64,000 nt of DNA from a virus (lineage: Duplodnaviria > Heunggongvirae > Uroviricota > Caudoviricetes). The stretch covers positions 46,087 to 110,086 of the IMG/VR virus record IMGVR_UViG_3300028591_000113, one strand, 5' to 3'. Below are positions 9,660-42,284 of this stretch, in pieces. The notes under the pieces are model-generated. The model saw nothing but the letters and a program-made list of their open reading frames with translations, did not search any database and had not been told where the DNA came from. Each line of letters starts with the position of its first letter. Position 1 is the first letter of the stretch. Position numbers and translations under genes: made by a program.

Positions 9660-10808
9660 ACATTTACCATTTCAAGAAATCTACTATTAGCCTAAATTGT
9701 CGAGTTAGTTTTACAAACCACCAGTTGAGAGCTTGACCGCTCGTTGACCTCCGCAAGAGGTTGCTGGACGCATTTCCGCCGGTTTGAGGTCCCTATCGCA
9801 TGCATCCGAACAAAAGCGAACCTTGGCTTGATTAGTCACCCAGTAGTAGACTTGTATTCTAGAACCTATAAGATATTATTGAATAGTAGGTTTCTTGAAG
9901 TGGTAACACTTCTGTCTTATGTGGACCCCGTGCGCTAATGACGCGCATCGAGTGGGGGAATATCAGCGGGCCCCTGTAAGAAGCTGAATAGGACATTAAA
10001 CTTAATCGTCATTGTGCGGGCAGTCTCACGCACAGCAAGGAAATACCTTCCTGCTAGATAGACCAGACCTCTTCGCAAGTTGACGCGTAACGGGAACTTG
10101 CCGCCATACTGGTTGTAAAATGTAAGGGGATTTAGTTAGTTTCTACCCAGACCCGTGAAACTAATAAAGGTTGATGTCAGGTATAAGACTTAAACACCAA
10201 TAATAATGGGGATAAAAGAGTATGCGGCTGCAGACTGTCAGAATAACCCCATTATGCTGATAAGGTTTGGGGTACGCAATAGTAATGTTGCGACGGTCAA
10301 TAACCCTCGAGTTACCGGATAAGGAATATGTTGTGTAGTCAACTAAGGATACCGCTGAGGACTTGAAAAACCCCATTATGTGCCACCAGGAGACTGTATG
10401 ACCCGTATTCGAAAAGTAGGCTGGCAACTACAGGGTAAACTTAAAACCCACAATAAAGGATAAAGACCGTGTGGTCACCGTGGGACAGAACGACCCGAAA
10501 CTAGGGAACGGCAACGAACCCTAATGAGCGGGCACGACGAGGTAATGCGTTGCAGACAACCTTCACAGTAATGTGATGCTCGACGCGAGGTTTGCGGCTA
10601 TCCACCCGATAAAGCCGTGGGAGGCAACTGCCCAGGAAGGATAAGTGTTGAACGAATTCGGTAGTGCCCGCAGGGCGAAGAGTCCAGAAACCGGAGCCGC
10701 AACTCGGGGTTGGCTATTGCGAGTAGCAGGGTGCGGAGAATAGCCGAGGTAGGAAACAGGTTGATTTGCAGTTACGGTACCTGTATAAACCACTGACAAC
10801 TGCGATAT
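9660..10808 (+). ncRNA. about 1.15-kb ORF-free GC-rich region inside tRNA array; candidate large structured ncRNA (ROOL/GOLLD-like)
   Basis: No credible ORF, stops in all frames, GC far above coding neighbours, internal repeated modules (AACCCCATTATG at 10237 and 10369), flanked by tRNAs. Confidence 0.4.
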
Positions 10809-10884
10809 GGGGGTATAGCTCAATTGGGAGAGCAACTGCTTTGCAAGCAGAAGGTTGTGGGTTCGATTCCCATTACTTCCACCA
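10809..10884 (+). tRNA. tRNA-Ala (TGC) with G3-U70 identity pair
   Basis: Acceptor GGGGGTA/TACTTCC (G3-T70 wobble), anticodon loop TTTGCAA, T-stem GTGGG/CCCAT. Confidence 0.8.
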
Positions 10885-11023
10885 AATAGTTAATTATAGA
10901 GAAGGGAAACTCTTAAAACCGCTAGTAGATGGTAAGGCAAACGAAAAGTAATAAGTTGTCTGTGCAAACGATCTGCGCGAAATGCTCGGTTATAGTTGTC
11001 CGTTGACTAATACAACTAGAAAT

Positions 11024-11101
11024 ACAGAGTTGGTCTAGTGGCTAGGACGCCTGATTTGGGATCAGGACACTTCCCGGGTTCGAGTCCCGGACTCTGTACC
11101 A
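11024..11101 (+). tRNA. tRNA-Pro (TGG)
   Basis: Acceptor ACAGAGT/ACTCTGT perfect, anticodon stem CCTGA/TCAGG loop TTTGGGA, T-stem CCGGG/CCCGG. Confidence 0.85.
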
Positions 11102-11161
11102 TTCGTAAACCTGATGCTTTCTGGCGCTAGACGACCAATTATGCGCTGTCAGGAGATTTCT

Positions 11162-11248
11162 ATGAAAGCATTTCTAAATAAACTTTGGCAATTATTTGTT
11201 GAAGGCTGGAATAAGCAATTAGAAGCGCAAATCCGCTTTCATAAGTAA
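11162..11248 (+). CDS. tiny ORF (28 aa) between tRNAs
   Basis: AGGAG RBS; weak. Confidence 0.15.
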   Translation: MKAFLNKLWQLFVEGWNKQLEAQIRFHK

Positions 11249-11289
11249 TGCAGCAGGAAATCGGAACCTGCGTAAAACACCGATTATAT

Positions 11290-11365
11290 GCCCTTCTAAC
11301 CCAACGGTAGAGGTAGCAAGCTCAAACCTTGTTCAGTGAAGGTTCGAATCCTTCGAGGGGTACCA
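11290..11365 (+). tRNA. class-I (short variable arm) tRNA with anticodon CAA (Leu codon UUG), 76 nt
   Basis: Acceptor GCCCTTC/GAGGGGT, anticodon stem GCAAG/CTTGT loop CTCAAAC, T-arm GAAGG-TTCGAAT-CCTTC; variable loop only 5 nt, unlike bacterial tRNA-Leu. Confidence 0.6.
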
Positions 11366-11366
11366 T

Positions 11367-11452
11367 GCCTTCGTGGCGGAACTGGGAGACGCATCGCACT
11401 TAAGATGCGATGTCCACTGGGCGTGTGGGTTCGAGTCCCACCGAAGGTACCA
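11367..11452 (+). tRNA. tRNA-Leu (TAA), class II
   Basis: 86 nt, 7-bp anticodon stem CATCGCA/TGCGATG loop CTTAAGA, long variable arm, T-stem GTGGG/CCCAC. Confidence 0.8.
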
Positions 11453-11473
11453 TTTTTAGAAACAGGAGAAATT

Positions 11474-11734
11474 ATGACAAGAGACGATTTAATTAGCATT
11501 TTGAAAACCAAGAAGTTCGACTGCATGAATGATATGGTTGAATACTTTGAAAAATGCGGTTTTAACAGCGAAATTGAAGATGCTAATTGGGAATGTCTTT
11601 CTGTCAGATTTATAAACGGCACTGATAAATTGGATTTCAGTAGCCTTTACAACCCATGGCTTAATACATGGGAAGTCATTGTCTATGAATGGGATAACCC
11701 ATTTGATAATGACTACGAAATTAAATTAAGATAA
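11474..11734 (+). CDS. hypothetical protein (86 aa)
   Basis: AGGAG RBS, ORF between tRNA genes. Confidence 0.55.
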   Translation: MTRDDLISILKTKKFDCMNDMVEYFEKCGFNSEIEDANWECLSVRFINGTDKLDFSSLYNPWLNTWEVIVYEWDNPFDNDYEIKLR

Positions 11735-11737
11735 AAT

Positions 11738-11812
11738 ATCGGTCTAGTGTAACGGCAACACAGCTGTCTCCAAAACAGCACGATCAGGGTTCGAATCCTT
11801 GGGCCGGTGCCA
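11738..11812 (+). tRNA. tRNA-Trp (CCA)
   Basis: Acceptor ATCGGTC/GGCCGGT, D-stem GTGT/CACA, anticodon stem GCTGT/ACAGC loop CTCCAAA, discriminator G. Confidence 0.75.
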
Positions 11813-12203
11813 AATATACTCGTGTTGGTGCAATTAGTAGCATTCCAGCGGCACCAGGTATTAGACGATAAGACTAATACAATGACCGCGGGCGACGTAG
11901 GTGCAATTCCTATTTTACGAGTGCCGAACAGTTTATAATTGGTCGCAACTGGAACAGCGTGTCCAGCGCTGGCGATAATAATGGCTAAAAGACGAAAGCT
12001 CTGCCGCGCCAAATAGATGCCGTGTAACTCGGCTAGCAGAAACCATAAGAACACGAGGGGCTCCGTCTGCGAAAATAACTTTAGCCCCACCATGATGAAG
12101 ACTTATTGCTTATTCGGGAGTTTATGCGTTAATTTGCCCGTTATTGCTCGATACAGAGCCTGTGTATTAGGCGCATAAGTTGGTTCAATTCCAACATTCA
12201 TCA
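11813..12203 (+). other. structured non-coding stretch with tRNA-like fragments (T-arms GTAGG-TGCAATT-CCTAT and GTTGG-TTCAATT-CCAAC with CACCA end) but no canonical cloverleaf; possible intron-containing or degenerate tRNAs
   Basis: Two T-arm-like elements, acceptor-like pairings 107-113 nt apart, direct repeat GGTGCAATT x2. Confidence 0.25.
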
Positions 12204-12268
12204 CCAAAGATAATTGTCTAGGTGTGCGGCATAGACAAGAATAGCGCAATTCTCGAGCCGCACAATAT

Positions 12269-12343
12269 GCTGACGTAGTTTAATGGCAAAACCCGACGTT
12301 GCCAACGTTGAGACCGTGGGATCGGTACCCACCGCCAGCTCCA
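12269..12343 (+). tRNA. tRNA-Gly (GCC)
   Basis: Acceptor GCTGACG/CGCCAGC, D-stem GTTT/AAAC, anticodon stem CGACG/CGTTG loop TTGCCAA, T-stem GTGGG/CCCAC (loop ATCGGTA atypical). Confidence 0.6.
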
Positions 12344-12737
12344 AACATTTATAATAGAGAAAGCAAACTCTTAAAACTCCGGGTACGTTTACGCCGCAAG
12401 CTGAAGACTCAGTGATTTTAATCGCCGTTGTTAATTACTAGAAAAAAAATGACATTCTTTAGCCCATAGTCCCGACTATGAGAAGCGGAGACCTCCGAAT
12501 AATAGTGGGTGGAGCCACTTGGTCAGCAGATGAGAGGTTATCGGGACAAACTAATTTATAACTATCTTCAAGCGATTACCTGAGCACATCTACGTTAACA
12601 GGATGCAGGAGAGACTTGGCTCCCGATAAAGCCCGTCCATAATGTGGGACGAATAGAGAAGACCGGAATGTATACTGTAAATCCAAATAAAAGGCTGCCG
12701 GTTGGAGAAAAAACGTCAAAGGAGATAGTTATTATAT

Positions 12738-12813
12738 GCTTCGTTACGTCAACTGGGAGACTACAATCCTTACAAGATTGTGGCTGTAGGTCCGAGTCCT
12801 GCACGGAGCACCA
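12738..12813 (+). tRNA. tRNA-Val (TAC)
   Basis: Acceptor GCTTCGT/ACGGAGC, anticodon stem CAATC/GATTG loop CTTACAA, T-loop TCCGAGT. Confidence 0.7.
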
Positions 12814-12814
12814 T

Positions 12815-12888
12815 GCCCGATTAGTATAGTGGTAATACTCTTCCTTGCCAAGGAAGCATCGTCGGTTCGAATCCGTCATCGAGCTCCA
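12815..12888 (+). tRNA. tRNA-Gly (GCC), second copy
   Basis: Acceptor GCCCGAT/ATCGAGC (one mismatch), D-stem GTAT/ATAC, anticodon stem CTTCC/GGAAG loop TTGCCAA. Confidence 0.6.
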
Positions 12889-12978
12889 GATGTAAATAAG
12901 CTCAGTTAGAAGAGTTCACTGACTGTATAAAGTAAGTACACGAGCTACCGTGGATAAAATTAGCCAACTCTTTTGTAT

Positions 12979-13056
12979 GCGCCTTTAGCTCAGCTGGGAG
13001 AGCGCCACTTTGACGTAGTGGAGGTTTCATAGGTTCGATCCCTATAAGACGCACCA
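12979..13056 (+). tRNA. tRNA-Val (GAC)
   Basis: D-arm GCTC-AGCTGGGA-GAGC, anticodon stem CCACT/AGTGG loop TTGACGT, T-stem ATAGG/CCTAT. Confidence 0.75.
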
Positions 13057-13070
13057 TAAGACAATAATTA

Positions 13071-13097
13071 GGTGGACTAGGTCCGCCTTTTTTGTTA
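13071..13097 (+). terminator. Rho-independent terminator after tRNA array (GGTGGAC-ta-GGTCCGCC + T6)
   Basis: Hairpin + TTTTTT, immediately followed by conserved upstream motif. Confidence 0.7.
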
Positions 13098-13133
13098 TAA
13101 TAATTATAGAAAAGTAAAAGAGGAATTATATTT

Positions 13134-13463
13134 ATGCGTTGCTTAGACCTTGAAAACTTAAAATTAGGATGGATTTCTCCAACAGGAGAGTTCGTTTTTT
13201 GTCGTTATGGTGACCATACTAAACTTGCTTTTGAAATTTGCGAACGTTTAGGTGTTGATATTGACCCTCTTGCTGAAGAAGACCCAGAAATCTTTTTAAT
13301 CAGACATGACTGGATTTTAGTTCACGCCCCAGGATTGGACCACATTACTGCGCATTATGACTATGCTATCACAGAAGAACAGCAATCTGTTCTCAACTGG
13401 TTAGGTGTAGAAAACCGTTGCGAAGTTAGTGAATGCCCAATTTATGGGAAAGACTACTTATAA
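13134..13463 (+). CDS. hypothetical protein (109 aa)
   Basis: ORF after conserved TTATAATAATTATAGAAAAGTAAAAGAGG motif. Confidence 0.6.
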   Translation: MRCLDLENLKLGWISPTGEFVFCRYGDHTKLAFEICERLGVDIDPLAEEDPEIFLIRHDWILVHAPGLDHITAHYDYAITEEQQSVLNWLGVENRCEVSECPIYGKDYL

Positions 13464-13488
13464 AATTAAAGAAAGAAGGAAACTATAA

Positions 13489-13734
13489 ATGGAAGCAATC
13501 ACCAAAAAGGAACAAATTGAATATTATCAAGCCTGTTTATGTGGCTTATTAAGAGCCTTAAAATGTGTAGAAAAATCTAAAACTATATCATGTAGCGTAG
13601 CACCAATAGAAGATGCGAATAATGTTATTTTCTGGTTAGAACGTAATGATACTTGTATATTAAAGAAACTTGTTAAACAAGAATTAAAAGAAGTTAAAAG
13701 AAAACTGAAACAATTAAAGAAAGAAAGAAACTAA
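13489..13734 (+). CDS. hypothetical protein (81 aa), basic C-terminus
   Basis: ORF with GGAAAC RBS. Confidence 0.5.
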   Translation: MEAITKKEQIEYYQACLCGLLRALKCVEKSKTISCSVAPIEDANNVIFWLERNDTCILKKLVKQELKEVKRKLKQLKKERN

Positions 13735-13736
13735 TT

Positions 13737-14099
13737 ATGAATATGGACTTAAAGAAACTTACAGCTGAAAGTGAACACTATGCGCGAAAAATCGCAGATA
13801 AGACTTTTAAGCGCGGCGTTAGAGATTTGAAGAAAGAAATTCGCAAACAAACTAGAGCAGGAGAATATAATGCTATTCTTTATACTAGATATTGGATTTC
13901 TAGCGAAGTAGAGGAACGAATTAAAAAATACTTTGAAGAACAAGGTTTTTATATTCGTAAGTATCGTTTCGGAGAACTTAATGAATATGTGGAAGTTTGT
14001 TGGGGTCCAGGCATTGAACGCCATAAAGAAATCGATGCAATTCAACTTAAAATGATGGAAGAAATAGCCGAACAAGAGAAGAAAGAAAGCGAGGAATAA
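13737..14099 (+). CDS. hypothetical protein (120 aa)
   Basis: ORF, tight spacing in operon. Confidence 0.55.
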   Translation: MNMDLKKLTAESEHYARKIADKTFKRGVRDLKKEIRKQTRAGEYNAILYTRYWISSEVEERIKKYFEEQGFYIRKYRFGELNEYVEVCWGPGIERHKEIDAIQLKMMEEIAEQEKKESEE

Positions 14100-14101
14100 T
14101 T

Positions 14102-14593
14102 ATGCGCTTACTTACTGAAAATGAAATCAAATTCTTAAAAGATACTGGTTGGACTCCAACCGTTTATCAATGCGGTAATAGAGAATGGTATCGCACTATC
14201 TTTTGCGATGAAATCAATGAAGACCAATTAAGCGGTGATTTTACTAATAATGACGAAGTTCAACAACATTGCGCAATTTATGCGGATGAAAAATATGGTA
14301 TTGATTTACCTGCTTTTTATGATGATTTAGTTAAAGATATGGACGGCATCTCTCTTGAAGAAGAAGCACCATACATTATCTATTGTCTTTTAACAGAAGA
14401 AGAATTAGATAGCAAAACCGACGCAGAATTATTACAGTGGTTAAAAGACTGGAAGTATTTCTTCGGTTATCGCAAAGCAGACGAACAAGATGCTCGTATC
14501 GCAAGATATGAAGCCAAAGGCTTGTTCAATGGTGCGCGTGAAGTCCGCACCTATGATGATGGCAGTATTTATATTAGTGAATTGGAGGACTAA
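14102..14593 (+). CDS. acidic hypothetical protein (163 aa)
   Basis: ORF overlapping upstream stop (ATAATTATG). Confidence 0.6.
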   Translation: MRLLTENEIKFLKDTGWTPTVYQCGNREWYRTIFCDEINEDQLSGDFTNNDEVQQHCAIYADEKYGIDLPAFYDDLVKDMDGISLEEEAPYIIYCLLTEEELDSKTDAELLQWLKDWKYFFGYRKADEQDARIARYEAKGLFNGAREVRTYDDGSIYISELED

Positions 14594-14596
14594 TTT

Positions 14597-14878
14597 ATGA
14601 AATACCAAGATATACCTTATAATAAAATGGCTTTTACGCCTGAAGAAGCAGAACAATGCGCAGATTTTGTTAAGTATTTAATGCAAATGAAAAGCCCAGA
14701 CCATTACAATGAAATATGTATTACTTCTGATGGCTATTGCACTATTGTTTGTTGGGTTCATAAACCACATGATAATTCCTACGGTGGTAGTTTTGAGTTC
14801 GTTGATGAAGACCAAGATATTTGGACTGATAAAGAAATCGACGAAATCGTCAAAGCCCGTATAGAAAACCAAAAATAA
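14597..14878 (+). CDS. hypothetical protein (93 aa)
   Basis: ORF. Confidence 0.55.
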   Translation: MKYQDIPYNKMAFTPEEAEQCADFVKYLMQMKSPDHYNEICITSDGYCTIVCWVHKPHDNSYGGSFEFVDEDQDIWTDKEIDEIVKARIENQK

Positions 14879-14880
14879 CT

Positions 14881-14909
14881 TGACAACGAGCTTTAATTAT
14901 CATATAATA
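14881..14909 (+). promoter_or_regulatory. consensus sigma70 promoter TTGACA-17nt-TATAAT
   Basis: Perfect hexamers at 14881-14886 and 14904-14909. Confidence 0.7.
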
Positions 14910-14915
14910 TAAATG

Positions 14916-15843
14916 ACTAGATAGGGATATTGTGCGCAGTATCCCGAGCCTATCCTTGTGGGTAGGTGACTGACAAGTTGACCGACAGGTCGTTAAACTG
15001 CTGCTCACATAGTCCATGCGGAGCTTAATTGAGAAGAGGACATTTGATACTAAAAGATAATCCGTGAAATCTCAAATGATGCGGTGTCATCCACTTAGGG
15101 TAAAACCTGAGGACCTATTACTTCCTTAATTAGGGTTGAGATATTGTAGCGGTCGGGGATCTTTGAATGAGAGTAGGGTTGGCGCGCTCTCAGGGTAACA
15201 ACTTAGTTTGTTTTGTCGGCGTAGAGACGTTAAACCTACTGCTACCAATCTGACCAACCGGTTGCGTCAGTGAAACCTAGGATAACATGGACCTAGCGAC
15301 TTGAGTATGCGTTTACGGCCCGGGGTTACCCGCGCGGCGCATGCTAGTGGTTCCCACCATTCGGTGCTGAGGGATTGATCACCCAACGCGGTCCAACGTG
15401 AAAGCCGAAGAAACGCGGGAGATTCCCGCCTAGTAAGGGTTTGGCTCTTACACCTGTGAAAAAATGAAGGGATCGTTCCCCTTACTGTCCAGTAACTCTG
15501 GGCGGTGTGCTGGTGCCCAGCCTTGTCAAGCCGCAGGTAAAAGGTCACAGTTGAGGTGTGACTGAATAGGTAATGGTCTAAAACCTGCCGAGTTTGGTAA
15601 ATGACAATTAACCCAACCTCATTCTTTAGTTTGTTGGTGTAATCTAGCAGAAAACCATCTAGCTTCGCAATGTGCTAAAATACTAGTCAAACATTGTTTG
15701 AGAGTCCCAGGGTTGAGAGTGAAAGTCTAGCCACTCTCGTAAAATCATAGGCCGATAAGGTCTCTGGGCAAATGGATAGAAAAGTACCCTAAAATTCTAT
15801 CCAACTATTTGAAAATTAAGGTGGACTATGTCCACCTTTTTTG
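14916..15843 (+). ncRNA. about 930-nt ORF-free GC-rich transcription unit (promoter to terminator); candidate large structured ncRNA
   Basis: Stops in all 3 frames throughout, GC about 48% vs about 36% coding, perfect promoter upstream and terminator AAGGTGGAC-tat-GTCCACCTT+T6 at 15818-15843. Confidence 0.5.
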
Positions 15844-15878
15844 TTATAATTATTATATAGAAAAGTAGAGGTATATAT

Positions 15879-16133
15879 ATGAGAAAGTTAACTAAAACTA
15901 TCAATCGCAGACGTAAAAATTACAAACCAACAATCGGCTTAACATCAAAAGACGGTAGTTACCGCAAAAGTGTTAATGCTACTGTTTATTATATTAAACT
16001 TCAAAAGAAAAGAGATGCCGAGGCTGAACGAGAAGCACGAAAATTTCTTATGAACTTCTTAGAAGAAAAGATGCCTAAATTTTTTGGTATGCTTAATGCG
16101 TTTGCTAACTTAGGCGACTGGATGTATTATTAA
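15879..16133 (+). CDS. basic hypothetical protein (84 aa)
   Basis: ORF after conserved upstream motif TTATAATTATTATATAGAAAAGTAGAGG. Confidence 0.55.
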   Translation: MRKLTKTINRRRKNYKPTIGLTSKDGSYRKSVNATVYYIKLQKKRDAEAEREARKFLMNFLEEKMPKFFGMLNAFANLGDWMYY

Positions 16134-16146
16134 AAAGGAATTAATT

Positions 16147-16662
16147 ATGCCAAATGAAAAGATAAAAGTTCTATTCTTAGATGTCGATGGAGTTCTAAAC
16201 TCTACCGCAGAACTTTTTGATGACCGCGCAATTAATCCGAAAAAATTAGAAATCCTTAAAACTATTATTGATAAGACAAATGCTAAGATAGTTTTAACTT
16301 CTACTTGGCGTTGTTTTGTTAATAAGTTAAGTGCTGTTATTGAGGCACTTGAAACTGTTAATTTAGAACTCTATGGCATTACTCGTGAAGGAGTTGCTAT
16401 GAAAGACTTCAAAAATACTCCTTGGGCTAATGTAAAACGTTGCCCTTCCTATATTTATGAAGATGATATAAATAACGATCGCGGGGCAGAGATTGCCTGG
16501 TGGATTTGGTGCAGAAGAGAAAAAATAGATAAGTTTGCCATCGTTGATGACGAAGATGTTGATATTCGTAAGTATTTCCCAAATAACATTGTGAAAACAG
16601 GATTTTCAACAGGGCTTACTTCAGAAGACGCGGCGAAAATAGTAAAGATACTGGAGGATTAA
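16147..16662 (+). CDS. HAD-superfamily phosphatase (DxDxV motif FLDVDGVLN)
   Basis: N-terminal motif I LFLDVDGVLN, motif II S/T (LTSTW), C-terminal acidic Asp cluster (VDDEDVD). Confidence 0.6.
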   Translation: MPNEKIKVLFLDVDGVLNSTAELFDDRAINPKKLEILKTIIDKTNAKIVLTSTWRCFVNKLSAVIEALETVNLELYGITREGVAMKDFKNTPWANVKRCPSYIYEDDINNDRGAEIAWWIWCRREKIDKFAIVDDEDVDIRKYFPNNIVKTGFSTGLTSEDAAKIVKILED

Positions 16663-16664
16663 CC

Positions 16665-17060
16665 ATGAGTATTTTAGACAGTGAATATTTTTATGATGTT
16701 TATTGTAGTAAATTAGCAGACGAATGTAATAGTCTTAAAGAGGCTTTATCTTGCTATTGCGAGGAATGTGGCAATGGTGCTGATGTTATTCGTTATTATG
16801 TGGAACGCCATGAAAAAGACGAAAACTTTGAAACAGAAGTTGAACTTTTAGGCTATCCAAAAATCGCGCAATTACTTGACATTTTATTGCCTACTAAGTA
16901 TGACATTATGAAACCTTGGTATAAACGTCAATGTCTCAGTTTACTCGGAGAAGACGATAAAGACTTAACTGCGCACGAAAAGCATTGGAAGCGCATTATT
17001 GCTAATATTTATGATTATTACAAAAAAGGTTTCGATAAAGTTGACGAAACTCTTGACTAA
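16665..17060 (+). CDS. hypothetical protein (131 aa)
   Basis: ORF. Confidence 0.55.
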   Translation: MSILDSEYFYDVYCSKLADECNSLKEALSCYCEECGNGADVIRYYVERHEKDENFETEVELLGYPKIAQLLDILLPTKYDIMKPWYKRQCLSLLGEDDKDLTAHEKHWKRIIANIYDYYKKGFDKVDETLD

Positions 17061-17248
17061 ACCCGAAAATTATTTTATAATACTTATAGAAAGATAAGAA
17101 AATATCTTTTATTAGTTGAAAGGAGAACTACGCTATGACAAAACTAATATCTAAACAATTTAGACTCAGTTGCCAACGCTCAATGAAGTGTATGTTTTCC
17201 TATGCTAGTAAGAGATAATTAGTTTTACCTAATACCACGATTAATTAT

Positions 17249-17283
17249 TACCACTAGTATAGGAAATACTAGTGGTTTTTTAT
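17249..17283 (+). terminator. Rho-independent terminator (ACCACTAGTA-n-TACTAGTGGT + T6)
   Basis: 10-bp perfect stem + TTTTTT. Confidence 0.7.
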
Positions 17284-17287
17284 TGAT

Positions 17288-17363
17288 GCGTGGGTACCCA
17301 AGCGGCTAAGGGAGCTGGCTGCAACCCAGTTATTCGGGGGTTCGAATCCCTTCTCACGCTCCA
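17288..17363 (+). tRNA. tRNA-Cys (GCA)
   Basis: Acceptor GCGTGGG/CTCACGC, anticodon stem GCTGG/CCAGT loop CTGCAAC, T-loop TTCGAAT. Confidence 0.75.
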
Positions 17364-17378
17364 TACTTGGATCGTTCG

Positions 17379-17456
17379 CCAAGCAGTTCTAAGGCCCTCG
17401 GCCCATAACCGAGTTATCGTGGGTGCGAATCCTACACGATCCACCAAAATAATTTA
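17379..17456 (+). tRNA. tRNA with CAT anticodon (Met or Ile2-lysidine type), C33 in loop CCCATAA
   Basis: Acceptor GGATCGT/ACGATCC perfect, anticodon stem CTCGG/CCGAG, T-stem GTGGG/CCTAC. Confidence 0.6.
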
Positions 17457-17515
17457 TAGACATAATTGAAAAGTTATGTTATAATAAATATGTAAGAAAA
17501 AGAAAGGAAGATATT

Positions 17516-17863
17516 ATGTCTGTTCTTAAAACACAAGGAGATTTTAGAATCTCCCAAATCAAAAAATTAACTCAATTATGTCCTGAACCCGTGTTAGAAG
17601 CGCGACCAATTAAAGAAGGTCTTAGTTTGGAAAAAACTTATTTAGACCCAGCAGACGGTAAAGTGCATGCTTACTCTATTGCATCATTCAAGTGGGATGC
17701 TCACAATGAATGTGTTGATATGGAAACTGTTGGTGAACGCTTTATGACAGGTGTTTCAGAAGAAGAATATCCTGCGGTTAGAGAATTAATGCAATTTGCT
17801 ACTGATTTAATTAGAGCCGCATGGGAAAATGAAGAAGAAGGAGACTGGGATTACACCCGTTAA
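17516..17863 (+). CDS. hypothetical protein (115 aa)
   Basis: ORF with AAGGAAG RBS. Confidence 0.55.
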   Translation: MSVLKTQGDFRISQIKKLTQLCPEPVLEARPIKEGLSLEKTYLDPADGKVHAYSIASFKWDAHNECVDMETVGERFMTGVSEEEYPAVRELMQFATDLIRAAWENEEEGDWDYTR

Positions 17864-17873
17864 CCTTCAAGAT

Positions 17874-17953
17874 AACCGTGTCGCCAAGTGGCTCAAGGCA
17901 CCAGACTTTGACTCTGGTATATGTCGTAGGTTCGAATCCTTCCACGGTTGCCA
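17874..17953 (+). tRNA. tRNA-Gln (TTG)
   Basis: Acceptor AACCGTG/CACGGTT perfect, anticodon stem CCAGA/TCTGG loop CTTTGAC. Confidence 0.7.
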
Positions 17954-17955
17954 AT

Positions 17956-18026
17956 GGCTGTATTGTTCAGTAACAGCGTGCGTCTCATAAGCGCATTAAG
18001 AAAGTGCGACTCTTTCTGCAGCCACC
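17956..18026 (+). tRNA. tRNA with CAT anticodon (third CAT tRNA), compact 71 nt
   Basis: Acceptor GGCTGTA/TGCAGCC, anticodon stem TGCGT/GCGCA loop CTCATAA, T-stem GAAAG/CTTTC. Confidence 0.55.
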
Positions 18027-18038
18027 AATACGATATTA

Positions 18039-18060
18039 AAATGCAATTTATTGCATTTTA
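18039..18060 (+). promoter_or_regulatory. perfect 22-bp palindrome AAAATGCAATTTATTGCATTTT (operator-like) between tRNAs, plus second palindrome GTGCAGTAAAATGCAC at 18081-18096
   Basis: Exact inverted repeats seen in sequence. Confidence 0.35.
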
Positions 18061-18102
18061 GGACATAAAAACTTACTTAAAGTGCAGTAAAATGCACGTT
18101 AT

Positions 18103-18177
18103 GGTCAGGTAACTTATATGGTAGAGTGAAGGTCTGAAAAACCTTAGAAGTGGATCCGAGCGCCACCCTGACCACCA
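18103..18177 (+). tRNA. tRNA-Phe (GAA)
   Basis: Acceptor GGTCAGG/CCTGACC perfect, anticodon stem AAGGT/ACCTT loop CTGAAAA. Confidence 0.75.
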
Positions 18178-18182
18178 AATAT

Positions 18183-18271
18183 GCACCTGTGGTGAAATTG
18201 GTAGACACGCCACTTTGAGGGGGTGGTGTCCGTACAAGGACGTGCGAGTTCGAATCTCGCGAGGTGCACCA
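18183..18271 (+). tRNA. tRNA-Leu (GAG), class II
   Basis: 89 nt, anticodon stem CCACT/GGTGG loop TTGAGGG (G37), variable-arm hairpin GTCC..GGAC, T-stem GCGAG/CTCGC. Confidence 0.7.
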
Positions 18272-18395
18272 GATAATTAATTACACTCCGAGACAGAAAC
18301 ACTCATTCAAGTTTCCAGCAACTTATGAGAGCGCATCCGAGAAGAGATTTCGTAGCTTACAATAAAAGGAAGCCAAAGGGAGTAGGTCGCGGAGT

Positions 18396-18860
18396 GTGAT
18401 AATAAATGAAAGGAAACTAATGAAGTATTTTATTTCTTACTTTGCGCGATTAAAGGACTTCACATCTAATATGTTGCCCGTTTCGACCGCAGCATTTGAG
18501 CAGGCTTGGTTCAGAGGTAAGGTAGAACATATACCTGAATTAACACCTCCTACCAAGATTATGGTTGAACTTGAGGCTACTAATCAGATGTGCCGTAAAA
18601 ACTGTCCATTTCATGCACCGTGCGCGTTTATGGACAAGTATAAGGAATATCTTGACTCATTAGATTTTGATAAAGTGATTACAAAGTTAGAATTATTAAC
18701 TTTGAAACACCCAACCGTTGATACTATTGTATTGATGGTTTATGAAAAATATGATGTTCCTTGCGCTGAAAGACCTTGCTTACAAGCGTGGTTTAAAGAG
18801 CATGGAATAGAACTAAAAGAGTGGAATAAGCCGCAAATTAAGAAAACAGAATTGTTTTAG
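18396..18860 (+). CDS. hypothetical protein (154 aa)
   Basis: ORF, TAG stop. Confidence 0.55.
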   Translation: MIINERKLMKYFISYFARLKDFTSNMLPVSTAAFEQAWFRGKVEHIPELTPPTKIMVELEATNQMCRKNCPFHAPCAFMDKYKEYLDSLDFDKVITKLELLTLKHPTVDTIVLMVYEKYDVPCAERPCLQAWFKEHGIELKEWNKPQIKKTELF

Positions 18861-18871
18861 AAAGGATTGTT

Positions 18872-19210
18872 ATGGGTTTTTACGAAGAACATGATGAAGA
18901 TGTCAATCATTTAGCAGATAAGAATAAATTATCTGACGCTGAAAAAATTAAGATGTGCGAGATTCTTATGGATACTTGCGCAGCCTATGACATTCCACTC
19001 AATAGCATTGAAGATGCGCAGAACTTCTGGGAACTAATCAGATATGGTTATACCCACGTTGAACGTGAAGAACAAGCCGCTCTTTATCGCTTTATTAATA
19101 CTCATTATCCACAATTATTCGCAGAGATGGACGAATGTTATGAAAACTTAAAAAAGACATATCCATTGGCTGCGGCAAGTGGAGTTTACGATTATAAGAA
19201 AAACAGATAA
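18872..19210 (+). CDS. hypothetical protein (112 aa)
   Basis: ORF. Confidence 0.55.
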   Translation: MGFYEEHDEDVNHLADKNKLSDAEKIKMCEILMDTCAAYDIPLNSIEDAQNFWELIRYGYTHVEREEQAALYRFINTHYPQLFAEMDECYENLKKTYPLAAASGVYDYKKNR

Positions 19211-19288
19211 TGCTCAGGTACTCGAACTGGTATAGAATGCTGGCTTAGAATCAGTAGTTTGTGGGTTCGAATCCCACCCTGAGCACCA
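19211..19288 (+). tRNA. class-I tRNA with anticodon TAG (Leu codon CUA/CUG), weak D-stem
   Basis: Acceptor GCTCAGG/CCTGAGC perfect, anticodon stem GCTGG/TCAGT loop CTTAGAA, T-arm GTGGG-TTCGAAT-CCCAC; 78 nt with 5-6 nt variable loop. Confidence 0.55.
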
Positions 19289-19310
19289 AACCAGAACAAG
19301 GAGAACAATT

Positions 19311-19496
19311 ATGGAAAAGGTTTACTTTATTTTTGATGATAGAATTTATTGCGGCGCAATCATGGATAAGAAAAGCGATGGTTGGATTGTCGCAGCAGGT
19401 AATGAAGTTATGTGGTTACCTATTACAGAACCACGCTTCAAATCATTAAATGAAGCACTTAGTTATAAATGTGGCGGAGTTTTAACACCACAATAA
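19311..19496 (+). CDS. small hypothetical protein (61 aa)
   Basis: ORF with AAGGAG RBS. Confidence 0.5.
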   Translation: MEKVYFIFDDRIYCGAIMDKKSDGWIVAAGNEVMWLPITEPRFKSLNEALSYKCGGVLTPQ

Positions 19497-19497
19497 T

Positions 19498-19572
19498 ACT
19501 CCTATAGCACAACGGTAATGCAACTGACTCTTAATCAGTGGAGTGAAGGTTCGAATCCTTCTGGGAGTACCA
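19498..19572 (+). tRNA. tRNA-Lys (CTT)
   Basis: Anticodon stem ACTGA/TCAGT loop CTCTTAA, T-arm GAAGG-TTCGAAT-CCTTC. Confidence 0.75.
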
Positions 19573-19576
19573 AAAT

Positions 19577-19656
19577 GCGCCCGTAGCTCAGCTGGTTTTT
19601 AGAGCATCTGACTTTTAATCAGGGGGTCGAAGGTTCGAATCCTTCCGGGCGCACCA
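19577..19656 (+). tRNA. tRNA-Lys (TTT)
   Basis: Acceptor GCGCCCG/CGGGCGC perfect, D-arm GCTC..GAGC, anticodon loop CTTTTAA. Confidence 0.8.
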
Positions 19657-19743
19657 ATTAATTTAATATGGCCCACGGGGTTTCCGGACGGTCCGTGAAA
19701 GCTTAACCTTTACGGAGGCATAAGAAAGGCAGAATTATAATTT

Positions 19744-20052
19744 ATGAGCAGAAGTTATAGAAAATCACCAGTTATTAAAGACAATGGCAAAGGCAAGAAA
19801 AAGCAAAAAGCAATCGCTAATAGAGTAGTCAGAAGAAAATTAAAAAATCCTGATTATGTTGTTCCTAATGGCGGTTCTTATACCAAGGAATACGAATCTT
19901 GGAGAATTGCTGATTATACTTCCAGATGCACTGAAGAAGAAGCCAAAGAAATGTGGCATCGTTCAATGAGAAAATATCCTTGGTTTAAAGAACACTACCC
20001 AACATTAGAATCTTATATGATTTGGTGGAAGAAAACTTATAGGAGCAAGTAG
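19744..20052 (+). CDS. basic hypothetical protein (102 aa)
   Basis: ORF. Confidence 0.55.
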   Translation: MSRSYRKSPVIKDNGKGKKKQKAIANRVVRRKLKNPDYVVPNGGSYTKEYESWRIADYTSRCTEEEAKEMWHRSMRKYPWFKEHYPTLESYMIWWKKTYRSK

Positions 20053-20053
20053 T

Positions 20054-20263
20054 ATGAAATTAACATATACAATTCAATGGACGGATCCAGTTAAACAAAA
20101 TATGCCATTCTTGAAAATTGATGGTGATGATAATATAGCATTATATATTGCCAAAAAGAAATTAGATGAAGGTATGGAAAATGTAGTCATCAGACTTAAT
20201 AAAGCCGTCGAAGGCAAAGAAGATGAGCATTATCCTGCCGTTGATAATGGAGACGTGGAGTAA
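20054..20263 (+). CDS. small hypothetical protein (69 aa)
   Basis: ORF; 3-prime end overlapped by tRNA-Ser(GCT). Confidence 0.5.
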   Translation: MKLTYTIQWTDPVKQNMPFLKIDGDDNIALYIAKKKLDEGMENVVIRLNKAVEGKEDEHYPAVDNGDVE

Positions 20264-20336
20264 TAGGTATCTCAAGAGATTGCTAATCTCTCCAACCTCC
20301 TGGGTTGTCCGGGTTCGAGTCCCGGCGCCTCCGCCA
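20249..20336 (+). tRNA. tRNA-Ser (GCT), class II, 5-prime end overlapping last 5 codons of upstream CDS
   Basis: Acceptor GGAGACG/CGCCTCC (6/7 bp), anticodon stem AGAGA/TCTCT loop TTGCTAA, variable-arm hairpin CAACC..GGTTG, T-arm CCGGG-TTCGAGT-CCCGG. Confidence 0.55.
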
Positions 20337-20339
20337 GAT

Positions 20340-20430
20340 GCGGGCTTAGTTATAAATGGTAAAACTTGTGTTGAAAAAGGAAGAAAACACTAACTGTCCT
20401 TGTTGCGGGTTCAACTCCCGTAGTCCGCTC
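20340..20430 (+). other. tRNA-like element (acceptor GCGGGCT/AGTCCGC, T-arm GCGGG-TTCAACT-CCCGT, no CCA) with unresolved anticodon arm; possible atypical or degenerate tRNA
   Basis: Clear acceptor and T-arm pairing about 91 nt apart; no 7-nt anticodon loop could be placed. Confidence 0.3.
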
Positions 20431-20593
20431 TTTACGTTCTTTTCAGGTTTATGCCATATCTGTAATCAGAAAGGCATACGAGGCTGCTATCGTGAATCGT
20501 AGCTTGGATCAGCGGCGAAGATCCGCTGGCGAGTGATTCTTGCCTAATCCGGCTCGGTCAAGTCGTTAGTAAGTGATTCTTACATGACCATAT

Positions 20594-20683
20594 AGAAGTG
20601 TGAGTGAGTCCGGTTTAAACTACTGGTCTAGAAAACCAGCGAACAGCAATGTTCCGTGGGTTCAAATCCCACCGCTTCTGCCA
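20594..20683 (+). tRNA. tRNA-Ser (AGA), class II, A34
   Basis: Acceptor AGAAGTG/CGCTTCT, anticodon stem CTGGT/ACCAG loop CTAGAAA, variable-arm hairpin GAAC..GTTC, T-stem GTGGG/CCCAC. Confidence 0.55.
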
Positions 20684-20699
20684 AAATTACAAACTACCT

Positions 20700-20786
20700 G
20701 GAGAGCTGTGATAACTGGTAGTCGGGCGGTCTTGAAAACCGTTGTACATTAATGTATTTAGGGTTCGAGTCCCTAGCTCTCCGCCA
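20700..20786 (+). tRNA. tRNA-Ser (TGA), class II
   Basis: Acceptor GGAGAGC/GCTCTCC perfect, anticodon stem GCGGT/ACCGT loop CTTGAAA, variable hairpin GTACAT..ATGTAT, T-arm TAGGG-TTCGAGT-CCCTA. Confidence 0.75.
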
Positions 20787-20790
20787 ATAT

Positions 20791-20868
20791 ACCCTCTTAG
20801 CTCAACTGGATTAGAGCACTTGGCTACGAACCAAGAGGTTGCGCGTTCGAATCGTGCAGAGGGTGCCA
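20791..20868 (+). tRNA. tRNA-Arg (ACG)
   Basis: Acceptor ACCCTCT/AGAGGGT perfect, anticodon stem CTTGG/CCAAG loop CTACGAA. Confidence 0.8.
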
Positions 20869-20871
20869 GAT

Positions 20872-20948
20872 ACCCACATAGCTCAACTGGACAGAGCAAT
20901 GGATTTCTAATCCATCGGTTGAGGGTTCGAGTCCTTCTGTGGGTGCCA
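20872..20948 (+). tRNA. tRNA-Arg (TCT)
   Basis: Acceptor ACCCACA/TGTGGGT perfect, anticodon stem ATGGA/TCCAT loop TTTCTAA. Confidence 0.8.
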
Positions 20949-23583: not shown

Positions 23584-24454
23584 GCTCACAACGAAAAAGT
23601 ATTATCGAGAGATAAGAAAAAGTAGTTCGAGATACGAGAAACAGGGAAACCTGAAACTCCGCTGGCAAACGAAAATGCTGCCTTGGGCAAGCATAATGGC
23701 CCACCTTGTTCTTTGAAAATTATTTTGCAGCTTGGTGAAGATGGTCTTGCGGACCGCCAAGCAGTGACTCAAGAATGAAAGTGTCATGGGATACTGTGAC
23801 ATAAGTAAGAAACCTAGATAGTGATAGATAGGTAAACCTACTCATAAGAAAAGTAAGGATTGAGCCATGTGGGCAATATGTTAACTTGAACTCTAAACAA
23901 TACTTAAACTCGGCGGTGACAAGAGGCTACGCAGTAACAATTAAGAATGCGCCCCACCGCGAGATACTAGCGTGAGAAACTAGTATCTGGGTTCTCAAAG
24001 GAAACCGATGTCTTGATGTCTAGAAATAGACTATAACCGAGTAAAGTAGTGCGAGTAGCCGTACGACAGGAAGATAGAAAATGGCTTTAATTTGCAAGTA
24101 TGATCGCAAATCCTACACAGAATCTGAAGCTCGGTGAAAGTTGATGAGTAATGACCTCATCTTGTGTTAGTGTCTTAGGACACACTTCAGGAAGTGTAAG
24201 ATCGCAACTTACCCTCAGACCTGCGGTGCAATGTGTGAAACAAGAGTAGTTAATAAGTGTTGTATCATGAATAAAAGTGGGCAAAATGATTTTTAAAGAA
24301 CAAGGTAACTTGTTCAACTCACCTAACAATAGACCCCGTTAATAGTAAGGGATGGACCTCTGGAGCGAGAGCATTACAGGTTGAAGGTAGACGTGGCCCT
24401 TACCGATAGTGAGTTAAATATTAAGCATAGCGTGTCGAAAGGCACGCTTTTTTG
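23584..24454 (+). ncRNA. about 870-nt ORF-free GC-rich transcription unit; candidate large structured ncRNA
   Basis: Promoter upstream, terminator AGCGTG-tcgaaagg-CACGCT+T5 at 24429-24454, no plausible ORF on either strand (only spurious short ones). Confidence 0.45.
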
Positions 24455-28713: not shown

Positions 28714-28869
28714 TATATACTAAAATTCATTTTTGCCGAAACGTGACAAAATAACTATATTATATATGTATCAGTATTAAAGGCAAAATTACAGTAATGT
28801 AATGACGCAAAACTATAGGATCCTCCGACGGATAGCCAGTTACCTGACCAATCCTTTGGAGGTTTTTAT

Positions 28870-36806: not shown

Positions 36807-37097
36807 ATGAAGAAATTATTATTATTGCCTTTATTATTACTTACATTAACTGGTTGTGAGTTTGATAATAAAGCACCAAAAGTACCAGAAACTAATAACT
36901 ACGATAAATATTATGTTGTGTTATGCGAACATCATATTGAAAATTGTGAGTATGTAGCTTTTATTCATGATACCTATACTGATAATATCTATTATAGATG
37001 GGACAGTGTTAATAAGGGTAATTTAAGTCCTTATTACAATAAAGACGGCGCCATTATGAAGTATTCTGAGTTCCAACGAGTACATAAACATGATTAA
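36807..37097 (+). CDS. lipoprotein (signal peptide + lipobox LTLTGC)
   Basis: MKKLLLLPLLLLTLTGCEF N-terminus. Confidence 0.6.
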   Translation: MKKLLLLPLLLLTLTGCEFDNKAPKVPETNNYDKYYVVLCEHHIENCEYVAFIHDTYTDNIYYRWDSVNKGNLSPYYNKDGAIMKYSEFQRVHKHD

Positions 37098-37186
37098 GGA
37101 GCATAGTAATGGTATACGTTTTATTAGTTTTTGATGCTATATTAGTAGTTTCATTACTGCTTACTATTAAAAAAAGAAAATAATCT

Positions 37187-37456
37187 ATGGAAATGATTTA
37201 TACTGAAAATGATTTACTTTTACTTATAGCTGAAACAGAACGTGGCAACTGGCGTAAAACAGGTGTCTTAAAAAAGAAAGATGAATGGGTTGCATCTGAT
37301 GATAATGTTTTATGTGAATACGCAAGTGGTAATTGTATAGGAGACGAAACCTGCAAAAATTGTTTACGTAATCACCTTCTTCAATATATTGCCGATCAAG
37401 AGTATGATTACTTACGAAACATCCTTAAGCGTATTAAGGAAAGGTGTAATAAATAA
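37187..37456 (+). CDS. hypothetical Cys-containing protein (89 aa)
   Basis: ORF. Confidence 0.5.
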   Translation: MEMIYTENDLLLLIAETERGNWRKTGVLKKKDEWVASDDNVLCEYASGNCIGDETCKNCLRNHLLQYIADQEYDYLRNILKRIKERCNK

Positions 37457-38061
37457 TGGATAATACTACTAATGCAGGAATTGAACAATATCGTCAACAA
37501 AATAGGAATTATAATTTTACCTTAATTTCTAGAGACTGCATTGGTGGTATTGTTTATAATCAGTTAGGGTTGCCTTTTCTTTCTCCTACCGTTAATTTGT
37601 TTTTTAGTCCTGCAGATTTTAATTTATTTTGTCTTCATTTGAAAGACTATTTGGACGCCGAATTAATAGAGTGCTATGGATTTGATTATCCAGCTGGTGT
37701 TTTATTAACACCGAATCACCCTTGTATTATTATACATTTTATGCACTATAAAAATTTTTTAGAAGCAAAAGAATGTTGAGAAAGACGAAAAGAGCGCATT
37801 AACTGAAATAATATATATATTGTTTCTAGTTTTTGCTATCCTGGTGAAACTGAACATTTCAATGAACAATTAGTAGTTGATTGAAATAATATTCCTTATA
37901 AAAAAGTTATTTTTGTAAATCAGTCATATGGATTTGATAATGAATATGTTATACCACAGCCATTAGACTGTGCTGATTATGCCTGGTTATTGTCATTTGT
38001 TGATTCAAACTCTTGACGACGCGTAATAAATAAGTATGACTGAATTAGTTTTCTAAACTCT
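37456..38061 (+). CDS. polysaccharide-biosynthesis-associated DUF1919-like protein (201 aa, 5 TGA-Trp)
   Basis: Frame continuous through 5 TGA; N-terminal RDCIGG...SPTVNLF resembles DUF1919; assignment from memory, low certainty. Confidence 0.4.
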
Positions 38062-38152
38062 TAAAAAAACATAACGCTACTATTAGAAAACGGGCTGAAA
38101 AAGGTTAAAAAACATGCCGTTTTCTAAGGGCATGATTAAGTTATCAAAGCAT

Positions 38153-38184
38153 TAAAAAAGAGGACGCGTAGTCCTCTTTTATTT
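38153..38184. terminator. bidirectional Rho-independent terminator (AGAGGAC-gcgta-GTCCTCT flanked by A-run and T-run)
   Basis: Hairpin between convergent genes. Confidence 0.65.
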
Positions 38185-38892: not shown

Positions 38893-39108
38893 TATACTAT
38901 ATACAGGTGACCAGTATAGATAGCGGCGACGGGTGGTGCTGTGCTCGCGACTCTATCTTATATCTAAGGAAGACTGCGGGGGAGTAGGGCCTTAGGTGTC
39001 TTGTGCTTGCACTCGTTGTGTGGAAAACACGGTCATCTTTTTTTATGTAATTTTACTTCCATTAGAGAACAATACGTGCTATAATATATATAGAAAGTAG
39101 GAATAGTT

Positions 39109-39318
39109 ATGTTAAGAGCCGACATTGAAAAAATACTTAAAGAAAAAGGAATTACACAAATAGACATTGTTTACAATGAAAATGACAAATTAGGTGTCTA
39201 TTGCACTATGAAAAATGGTAAACTATATGATTATACTAATCACGTAGTGGATAGAAAGAAGGACATTTGGGGATACCTTAAATGGAAAGACGGAAAGAGT
39301 ACCAGAGTTGCTTGGTAA
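39109..39318 (+). CDS. small hypothetical protein (69 aa)
   Basis: ORF. Confidence 0.5.
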   Translation: MLRADIEKILKEKGITQIDIVYNENDKLGVYCTMKNGKLYDYTNHVVDRKKDIWGYLKWKDGKSTRVAW

Positions 39319-39354
39319 CTCTTTTTTATTTATATTAAATAATAGAGGTATAAA

Positions 39355-40965: not shown

Positions 40966-40975
40966 AGGAGATTTT

Positions 40976-41545: not shown

Positions 41546-41722
41546 GTTGACAATTAAATAATACATTAGTATAATATATTTATCATATGAGGCGGCGTTA
41601 TACTTATTTCGTATGAAGGAAACGCTGGGCACACAAGATAAGCGCCATTAATTGTGGTGCTTTTTTTGTTGACAAAGACCAAAATCGTCTTTATAATATG
41701 ATTAGAATGAAAGGAGTATTCT

Positions 41723-42282: not shown

Positions 42283-42284
42283 TT

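Follow-up and report, generated by a model that had tools for sequence, protein, structure and literature searches.

Here, we present an analysis of a transfer RNA (tRNA) gene of 77 nucleotides (nt) that lies on the plus strand of a 64,000-nt stretch of a Caudoviricetes phage (IMG/VR record IMGVR_UViG_3300028591_000113, positions 46,087 to 110,086), hereafter called the window, and that ARAGORN calls as tRNA-Leu(tag). The gene carries the leucine (Leu) anticodon UAG on a tRNA body whose variable loop is short, and it is probably a functional type I tRNA-Leu(UAG) that the host's leucyl-tRNA synthetase (LeuRS) charges and that decodes CUA and CUG. Judged by its sequence, it is a leucine tRNA in every feature but the missing variable arm. 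It is also a typical member of a widespread class that has been annotated but little discussed, and not a one-off oddity. Read in this way, the gene would be a working part of a near-complete phage tRNA set, CUA and CUG would stay Leu codons, and annotation as tRNA-Leu would be possible without invoking recoding.

The Rfam tRNA model RF00005 covers the gene at full length (model positions 1-71) with a score of 53.5 bits, where the gathering cut-off is 29 (E = 2e-11 locally). An earlier sequence-only reading of the window had proposed a class I tRNA with a Leu-box anticodon, and had named a covariance score in the pseudogene range as the result that would count against it. The score is far above chance and outside that range, and lies in the middle of those found within the surrounding tRNA array (39.6 to 69.9 bits). 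The end of the gene had been placed correctly; its start had been set one base early, at 19211, which is a lone T separating the TAA stop codon of the upstream open reading frame (ORF) from G1 of the tRNA. All of the described anatomy holds in the RF00005 alignment, including the perfect acceptor stem and T-arm and the variable loop of 5-6 nt, which has 5 nt, and the anticodon in its loop CUUAGAA is present both in this alignment and in the ARAGORN call (Table 1). The acceptor 5' strand is followed by U8 and A9, and the anticodon stem has five base pairs (bp), of which two are G.U (G.U, C-G, U-A, G-C, G.U). With a Leu-box anticodon and a variable loop within the 4-6 nt of type I tRNA-Leu, the gene belongs to that type; the long variable arm of type II tRNA-Leu, a stem-loop of more than 10 nt, is absent.

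The D-stem is poorly paired, as had been noticed, with U11-A24 and C12-G23 as its only two Watson-Crick pairs, a C10.A25 mismatch at its base and G13.A22 non-canonical or unpaired at its top. Although this weakness is real, most of it is the normal D-arm of a tRNA-Leu, a 3-bp stem with 13.22 unpaired, and only C10.A25 is unusual. Set beside the D-arm of type II tRNA-Leu, the gene has the same unpaired 13.22 and the same loop geometry, and is in addition mismatched at 10.25. The D-loop, AACUGGUAU, contains A14, A15, G18 and G19 in the alpha 4 / beta 3 arrangement of long-arm tRNA-Leu. All nucleotides for U8-A14, A15-U48, G18G19 with U55C56, and U54-A58 are present, from which the corresponding tertiary pairs are predicted.

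These features were compared across a family sample comprising at least 120 IMG/VR loci, collected by a pattern (UAG anticodon loop, class I spacing and standard T-loop), and three GenBank loci, in which ARAGORN found 1607 tRNAs. Among the matches listed, A73 occurs in 96% of the short Leu tRNAs (164/170), in 98% of the long ones (47/48) and in 54% of other class I tRNAs (n = 1057). The corresponding values for short, long and other tRNAs are 98%, 92% and 23% for an unpaired 13.22, 92%, 92% and 39% for A14A15, and 95%, 88% and 38% for U48. Within the same matches, alpha 4 / beta 3 is the commonest D-loop geometry in both the short and the long Leu forms, and the sole systematic difference between the two is position 9, which is A in 117 of the 170 short tRNAs and G in 46 of the 48 long ones. 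The gene studied here carries the full Leu set of A73, unpaired 13.22, A14A15 and U48. The LeuRS recognition set described for Escherichia coli and Aquifex consists of A73, U8-A14, A15-U48, G18-U55 and G19-C56 (PMC2377443, PMC6614811), and in Aquifex tRNA-Leu deletion of the arm chiefly lowers affinity, whereas deletion of U48 abolishes charging (PMC2377443).

As independent support, a naive-Bayes isotype classifier was built on 2,660 other tRNAs, with Leu represented by long-arm genes only and without sight of the anticodon and the variable region. For the body of the gene it places Leu first (-53.9, versus -57.4 for Cys), and an origin by anticodon switch, that is, from a tRNA of another isotype with a mutated anticodon, was rejected for this gene on that ground. 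Of 297 short tRNAs with Leu anticodons, the classifier assigns 42% to Leu and at most 11% to any other isotype. The sister tRNA of the same array, a type I tRNA-Leu(CAA), is ambiguous in this crude classifier, with Arg, Lys and Ile ahead of Leu, and has the family signature A73, C13.A22 and U48. The gene has G36, which is incompatible with the anticodon determinants of Val, Ile and Met. Alanyl-tRNA synthetase (AlaRS) needs G3.U70, and seryl-tRNA synthetase (SerRS) the long arm or G73 (reviewed in PMC9976931); the gene has none of these. By established identity rules, no synthetase other than LeuRS is a plausible taker of this tRNA.

Searches for close relatives of the window region with megablast and blastn against GenBank phages gave generic tRNA matches only, and searches of IMG/VR with the flanking ORFs and with an exact 38-mer gave no match. 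Relatives are plentiful in a large assembly collection, as metagenome contigs of 110-130 kb, and the relatives used here were taken from it; additionally, the nearest IMG/VR neighbour of the tRNA itself (L031) was included. Contigs of the same strain (L241-L245) carry an identical copy of the tRNA. In L247, whose marker protein is 89% identical, an orthologous tRNA lies at the equivalent ORF junction, and differs by the changes U3-A70 to C-G, C4-G69 to U.G, A5-U68 to G.U and G31.U39 to A-U; here C10 has become A, giving A10.A25, so that the mismatch at 10.25 is kept. The UAG tRNA of L253, a relative with a 39-tRNA array and a marker protein 49% identical, has C10.A25 and a 12-23 pair flipped from C-G to G-C. 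The L031 tRNA is 86% identical and stems from a phage with one detectable protein in common with the window; it again has C10.A25, and its acceptor and anticodon stems are wholly different yet fully paired. A25 and an unpaired 10.25 are thus kept in L247, L253 and L031, and two further C10.A25 members (L331 and L343) were found in contigs of ruminant metagenome-assembled genomes (MAGs). More diverged relatives (L249, L250 and L252) lacked tRNAs up to a distance of 10 kb from the marker gene, and the contigs L248 and L251 end before the tRNA position.

In a gapless alignment of 44 family members (A1), 93.4% of the cells are paired, compared with 34-47% when the partners are slid against each other. 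The covariation score is 0.94, versus 0.23 after shuffling, with none of 500 shuffles reaching 0.94, and double changes occur at 19 of the 21 pairs. Position 13.22 is paired in none of the 44 members, and 10-25 is unpaired in five of them. The compensatory changes and the covariation argue decisively against a decaying gene and mark the weak D-stem as a maintained trait. C10.A25 is a trait conserved in the sub-lineage of this tRNA and does not point to decay.

Leu codons in 77 ORFs are distributed as UUA 49.6%, CUU 24.2%, UUG 10.5%, CUA 7.2%, CUC 5.9% and CUG 2.5%. The four Leu tRNAs of the window divide these among them, with the long UAA tRNA for UUA and UUG, the long GAG tRNA for CUU and CUC, the short UAG tRNA for CUA and CUG, and the short CAA tRNA for UUG. 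The short and long forms are complementary and not redundant, the short ones serving rare codons and the long ones common codons, and the UAG tRNA is the only phage tRNA that covers CUA and CUG in a near-complete set. It is not a suppressor, as its 5'-UAG-3' anticodon pairs with CUA and CUG and not with a stop codon. An enrichment of CUA, CUG and UUG in particular gene classes had been put forward as a check. For CUA and CUG there is a modest one. Over the 26 genes that have in-frame UGA, these two codons together amount to 10.7% of all Leu codons, and over the 41 that lack it their share is 6.7% (Fisher p = 0.014); the gene classes do not differ in UUG. The meaning of the codons was examined in two proteins, a permease and a GyrB-like protein, aligned with 110 and 113 homologues of less than 85% identity, respectively. 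In these alignments, five of six CUA codons fall in columns of which Leu makes up at least 94%, and seven of nine UUG codons in columns of which it makes up at least 77%. The Leu fraction averages 0.84 for CUA and 0.85 for UUG, compared with 0.68-0.83 for the control codons UUA and CUU. Both codons align to Leu columns, which shows no reassignment of either.

Based on these data, the gene would be transcribed along with the adjoining small ORFs and tRNAs, and its ends would then be processed. The stop codon of the upstream ORF lies a single base from the tRNA, a junction also found in L241-L245 and L247, which makes release of the tRNA from a shared transcript probable. Taken together with published identity rules, the sequence suggests that the host LeuRS would charge the tRNA with leucine while ignoring the anticodon, through recognition of A73 and of the tertiary core U8-A14, A15-U48 and G18G19-U55C56. 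The charged tRNA would decode the rare Leu codons CUA and CUG, which are slightly commoner in the UGA-recoded, presumably late, genes. A Leu tRNA can lose the arm because LeuRS has no strict need of it; for SerRS it is required, and this would account for the restriction of arm loss in phages to Leu.

Short Leu tRNAs proved to be common. With blastn, both short tRNAs are matched best by genes of 75-77 nt annotated as tRNA-Leu in unrelated cultured phages, and such genes occur in Acinetobacter phage Acibel004 (two), FelixO1-like phages, Vibrio phages and C1-cluster mycobacteriophages. T5-like phages have short tRNA-Leu with the anticodons UAA and UAG, both of 77 nt, in hundreds of records, and Gordonia phage Boopy has three short and one long tRNA-Leu. 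For T5, work of the 1970s-80s reportedly identified a tRNA that accepts Leu, which is not counted as evidence here. More than 120 IMG/VR contigs contain short tRNAs with Leu anticodons, and among the matches listed the short and long Leu forms stand together in 35 of 122 loci. In an independent sample of IMG/VR loci ascertained on tRNA-Asn, the short form was found in 20 of 57 Leu tRNAs, in none of 38 Ser tRNAs and in 2 of 32 Tyr tRNAs. The short share of phage Leu tRNAs in this sample is thus about a third (rough 95% interval about 23-49%). The term non-canonical, which the sequence-only reading had applied to the CAA and UAG tRNAs, suits them by bacterial standards; in phages the type is common, and the pair is nothing special here. 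The pair itself is confirmed, with 49.3 bits for the CAA tRNA and with canonical long UAA and GAG tRNAs beside it, and the split into short CAA and UAG tRNAs and a long UAA tRNA (with or without GAG) recurs in L031, L247 and L253. In a full-text literature search, no paper turned up that deals with the short-arm Leu tRNAs of phages or treats them as a phenomenon.

The search pattern of the family sample also matches assemblies from bacteria of many phyla. Among these matches were 93 short UAG tRNAs bearing the Leu signature; dense tRNA arrays contain 71 of them, and 17 stand alone. Such stand-alone genes are found in chromosomes of Pseudonocardia, Jatrophihabitans and relatives (L255, L256, L259, L261 and other loci), and these actinomycete genes widen the type I case known from Streptomyces to another anticodon and to other genera. 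E. coli chromosomes contained no homologue of the short Leu tRNA of T5.

Several points weigh against a functional, leucylated tRNA. Position 37 is A, where Leu tRNAs that read CUN codons usually have G37 (the m1G37 site), as the long Leu(GAG) of the window has. The predicted minimum free energy (MFE) structure, for this tRNA as for that of L247, is an extended rod and not a cloverleaf, as the D-arm segment UCGAAC complements GUUCGA of the T-arm (19221..19227 with 19264..19270). The MFE is lower than the energy of the cloverleaf by 5.9 kcal/mol, a wider gap than for any other class I tRNA of the window, and the weakness of the D-stem is thus real in energetic terms as well. The family statistics are ascertained, being drawn from tRNAs that ARAGORN detects and from a pattern that fixes the anticodon loop and the T-loop, and the codon columns give the evolutionary meaning of a codon and not the identity of the tRNA that reads it. 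A literature search found no aminoacylation or expression data for this tRNA or for any short Leu tRNA of phages. E. coli LeuRS and one Streptomyces LeuRS fail to charge the type I tRNA-Leu of S. coelicolor (PMC6614811), which shows that not every LeuRS accepts a short-arm Leu tRNA. The rod is not taken as evidence against function, since the alternative pairing between D-arm and T-arm is not conserved in the L253 and L031 tRNAs and several good tRNAs of the window also misfold in silico. Folding must in this case depend on tertiary contacts or modifications, and the tRNA presumably folds correctly despite its weak D-stem.

Among other explanations, the short arm could serve escape from host defence. 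A Leu tRNA with a short arm, and with A9 for G9, would evade such nucleases or toxins of the host as recognise type II tRNAs, and Leu decoding would continue while the tRNA-Leu of the host is attacked. The frequency of short Leu tRNAs in phages and mobile tRNA arrays is in keeping with this, as are the coexistence of short and long forms and the difference at position 9, and passages of PMC10264068 and PMC11464382 present phage tRNAs that evade tRNA-targeting defences as an established theme. However, no defence system shown to target bacterial tRNA-Leu via the variable arm was identified, relaxed constraint on an arm unneeded by LeuRS explains the Leu-specific pattern equally well, and the common Leu codons of this phage are served by long-arm tRNAs, which would stay vulnerable. 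We consider defence escape unlikely as the explanation for this gene. The wider idea that arm loss in phages is adaptive, in that a short tRNA-Leu, with A9 and in this lineage a conserved C10.A25, would still be a LeuRS substrate while invisible to host factors that recognise type II tRNAs, for instance nucleases, toxins or modification enzymes, is doubtful as well, if marginally less so.

Charging with an amino acid other than Leu, or ambiguous charging, would entail that CUA and CUG are reassigned or mistranslated during infection. This would fit with the one recoding that the genome shows, of UGA to Trp, with the absence of the arm that bacterial tRNA-Leu typically has, and with the failure of E. 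coli LeuRS to charge one type I tRNA-Leu (PMC6614811). Yet CUA stands in Leu columns as often as the control Leu codons, the tRNA body is classified as Leu with the determinants for AlaRS, SerRS, Val, Ile and Met excluded by identity rules, and A73 is conserved across the family together with the Leu-type core, all of which leaves mischarging highly improbable. More improbable still is a decaying or non-functional gene, a remnant whose variable arm has been deleted and whose D-stem is degenerating, for which one could cite the two Watson-Crick pairs of that stem, the MFE fold and at least one degenerate tRNA-like element in the same array. Such a remnant is at odds with the mid-range score, the perfect acceptor and T-arms and the encoded CCA; with the compensatory substitutions in orthologues and a 10.25 mismatch that is kept at 49% marker identity; and with the role of the gene as the sole phage tRNA for CUA and CUG.

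Table 1 Position of the tRNA-Leu(UAG) gene, its parts and further features in the 64,000-nt window.
Feature	Position	Strand	Detail or basis
Type I (short variable loop) tRNA-Leu, anticodon UAG, CCA encoded	19212..19288	+	ARAGORN, Rfam RF00005, relatives
Acceptor stem, 5' strand GCUCAGG	19212..19218	+	7/7 Watson-Crick pairs with CCUGAGC, 19278..19284 (RF00005 alignment)
D-arm CUCG-AACUGGUAU-AGAA	19221..19237	+	RF00005 alignment
Anticodon arm GCUGG-CUUAGAA-UCAGU	19239..19255	+	ARAGORN, RF00005 alignment
Anticodon UAG	19246..19248	+	Pairs with CUA/CUG
Variable loop AGUUU, 5 nt	19256..19260	+	Last base U48, potential partner of A15 (RF00005 alignment)
T-arm GUGGG-UUCGAAU-CCCAC	19261..19277	+	5/5 pairs; U54, U55, C56 and A58 present (RF00005 alignment)
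Discriminator A73, then encoded CCA	19285..19288	+	A73 is the A at 19285; sequence
Upstream ORF, 112 amino acids	18872..19210	+	Stop codon ends one base short of the tRNA
tRNA array	8297..20948		32 of the 33 tRNAs of the window (ARAGORN)
Sister type I tRNA-Leu(CAA)	11290..11365	+	5-nt variable loop, A73, C13.A22 unpaired; ARAGORN, 49.3 bits
Canonical long-arm (type II) tRNA-Leu(UAA)	11367..11452	+	ARAGORN, 54.4 bits
Canonical long-arm (type II) tRNA-Leu(GAG)	18183..18271	+	ARAGORN, 41.9 bits
tRNA-Thr(AGU)	9584..9659		A34
tRNA-Ser(AGA)	20594..20683		A34
tRNA-Arg(ACG)	20791..20868		A34
Weak tRNA-like element	20340..20429	+	32.1 bits
ROOL RNA (RF03087)	23707..24300	+	196 bits, cut-off 99, full length
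c-di-GMP-I riboswitch aptamer (RF01051)	28772..28847	+	58.8 bits, cut-off 35
tRNA with anticodon UCA	42843..42939	+	ARAGORN 'tRNA-SeC(tca)'; 58.9 bits on the tRNA model
Permease (PF00860)	59368..60666	+	Uracil/xanthine type
Main region of UGA as sense	37000..61500		
Examples of UGA-recoded genes	39355..40965, 42964..47242, 49964..51910, 55636..56952, 59368..60666		

At the array position of the 89-nt long Leu(GAG) of the window, L247 has an 82-nt Leu(AAG) with a shorter arm (6148..6229), which shows that arm length and anticodon turn over within the lineage. The weak tRNA-like element has good acceptor, D- and T-arms and a disrupted and enlarged anticodon and variable region; it is without CCA and not called by ARAGORN. 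A tRNA-Tyr was not detected in the window and is present in L253. Additionally, tRNAs with A34 were observed: the window has Thr(AGU), Ser(AGA) and Arg(ACG), L253 has Ala(AGC), and L247 has Leu(AAG). In most bacteria A34 is confined to Arg(ACG), and these tRNAs suggest reliance on an A34 deaminase with broadened specificity.

The proteins of the window include a GyrB-type topoisomerase subunit, an ATP-dependent ligase, an SPFH protein, a GHMP kinase and the permease. The latter shares about 74% identity with a protein of Lactobacillus johnsonii, has many metagenomic homologues and is apparently a host-derived auxiliary gene. The ROOL RNA lies a few kb downstream of the tRNA array, and tRNAs of the same sub-lineage lie on contigs binned with ruminant Erysipelotrichaceae MAGs. 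Together with the permease similarity, these observations hint, and do no more than hint, that the host is probably a gut or rumen member of the Bacillota. A c-di-GMP-I riboswitch aptamer was also found.

UGA is used as a sense codon, apparently for Trp, in about 40% of the genes, throughout the window and mainly in one large region. When TGA is read as sense, coverage by frames of at least 100 amino acids rises from 61% to 79% overall and from 41% to 92% in the 40-48 kb interval, and 104 in-frame TGA codons are found in 26 of 67 genes. The one in-frame TGA of the permease aligns to Trp in 107 of 109 homologues, and another lies inside the UvrD-type helicase motif GDxxQSIFxFRGA. We presume that this corresponds to the stop-codon recoding known from gut phages. 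The tRNA that ARAGORN reports as a selenocysteine tRNA has UCA, the anticodon for UGA, and its variable region contains a 24-nt insertion. Its acceptor stem, AGGGGUG/CACCCCU with G73, resembles that of bacterial tRNA-Trp, and the gene is probably an opal-decoding tRNA for the recoding of UGA to Trp. It has an extra arm, where tRNA-Trp is normally without one, which is the reverse of what is seen in the short Leu tRNA.

According to PMC6614811, tRNA-Leu in bacteria is almost always type II; the short Leu tRNAs of phages are in tension with this generalisation and with the published view that E. coli LeuRS charges type II tRNA-Leu only. What deserves attention is the scale of arm loss in phages and its restriction to Leu, the LeuRS recognition core of the short forms, and the conserved C10.A25. 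The bacterial case closest to the tRNA described here is the type I tRNA-Leu(CAA) of S. coelicolor, which is leucylated by its own LeuRS with a kcat/Km about half of that for type II (PMC6614811). That gene is chromosomal, has the anticodon CAA and a variable loop ending in C48, whereas the phage gene has UAG and U48; in the S. coelicolor system, moreover, A73 is no identity element and charging needs a Streptomyces-specific LeuRS domain (PMC6614811). Animal mitochondrial tRNA-Leu is also type I, its variable loop being short as in the phage gene, and is charged by a bacterial-type LeuRS (PMC6614811). Its core is reduced and atypical, while the T-loop and D-loop of the phage gene are standard, and human mitochondrial tRNA-Leu is not charged by S. 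coelicolor LeuRS (PMC6614811).

Sequence similarity and a shared architecture also link the gene with the short tRNA-Leu genes of cultured phages. The tRNA-Leu(UAG) of Acibel004 (63499..63575) is 76.6% identical over 77 nt, with an identical acceptor 5' strand, and the T5-like short tRNA-Leu is 82.5% identical over 61 nt. These genes and the one in the window have in common the D-loop motif G/C13-A-A-Y-U-G-G-Y-A-N-A22, A73 and U48; in the cultured phages 10-25 is mostly paired, unlike the C10.A25 of the sub-lineage considered here, and the hosts and phage lineages are unrelated. Compared with type II tRNA-Leu, the gene differs in a variable region of 5 nt instead of an arm of 11-19 nt, in A9 instead of G9, in A37 instead of G37 and in its mismatched 10.25. 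It agrees with type II in A73, U8/A14, A15/U48, the placement of G18G19, the unpaired 13.22 and the Leu-box anticodon, and its D-loop and T-arm are close to those of the long Leu(UAA) in its own array.

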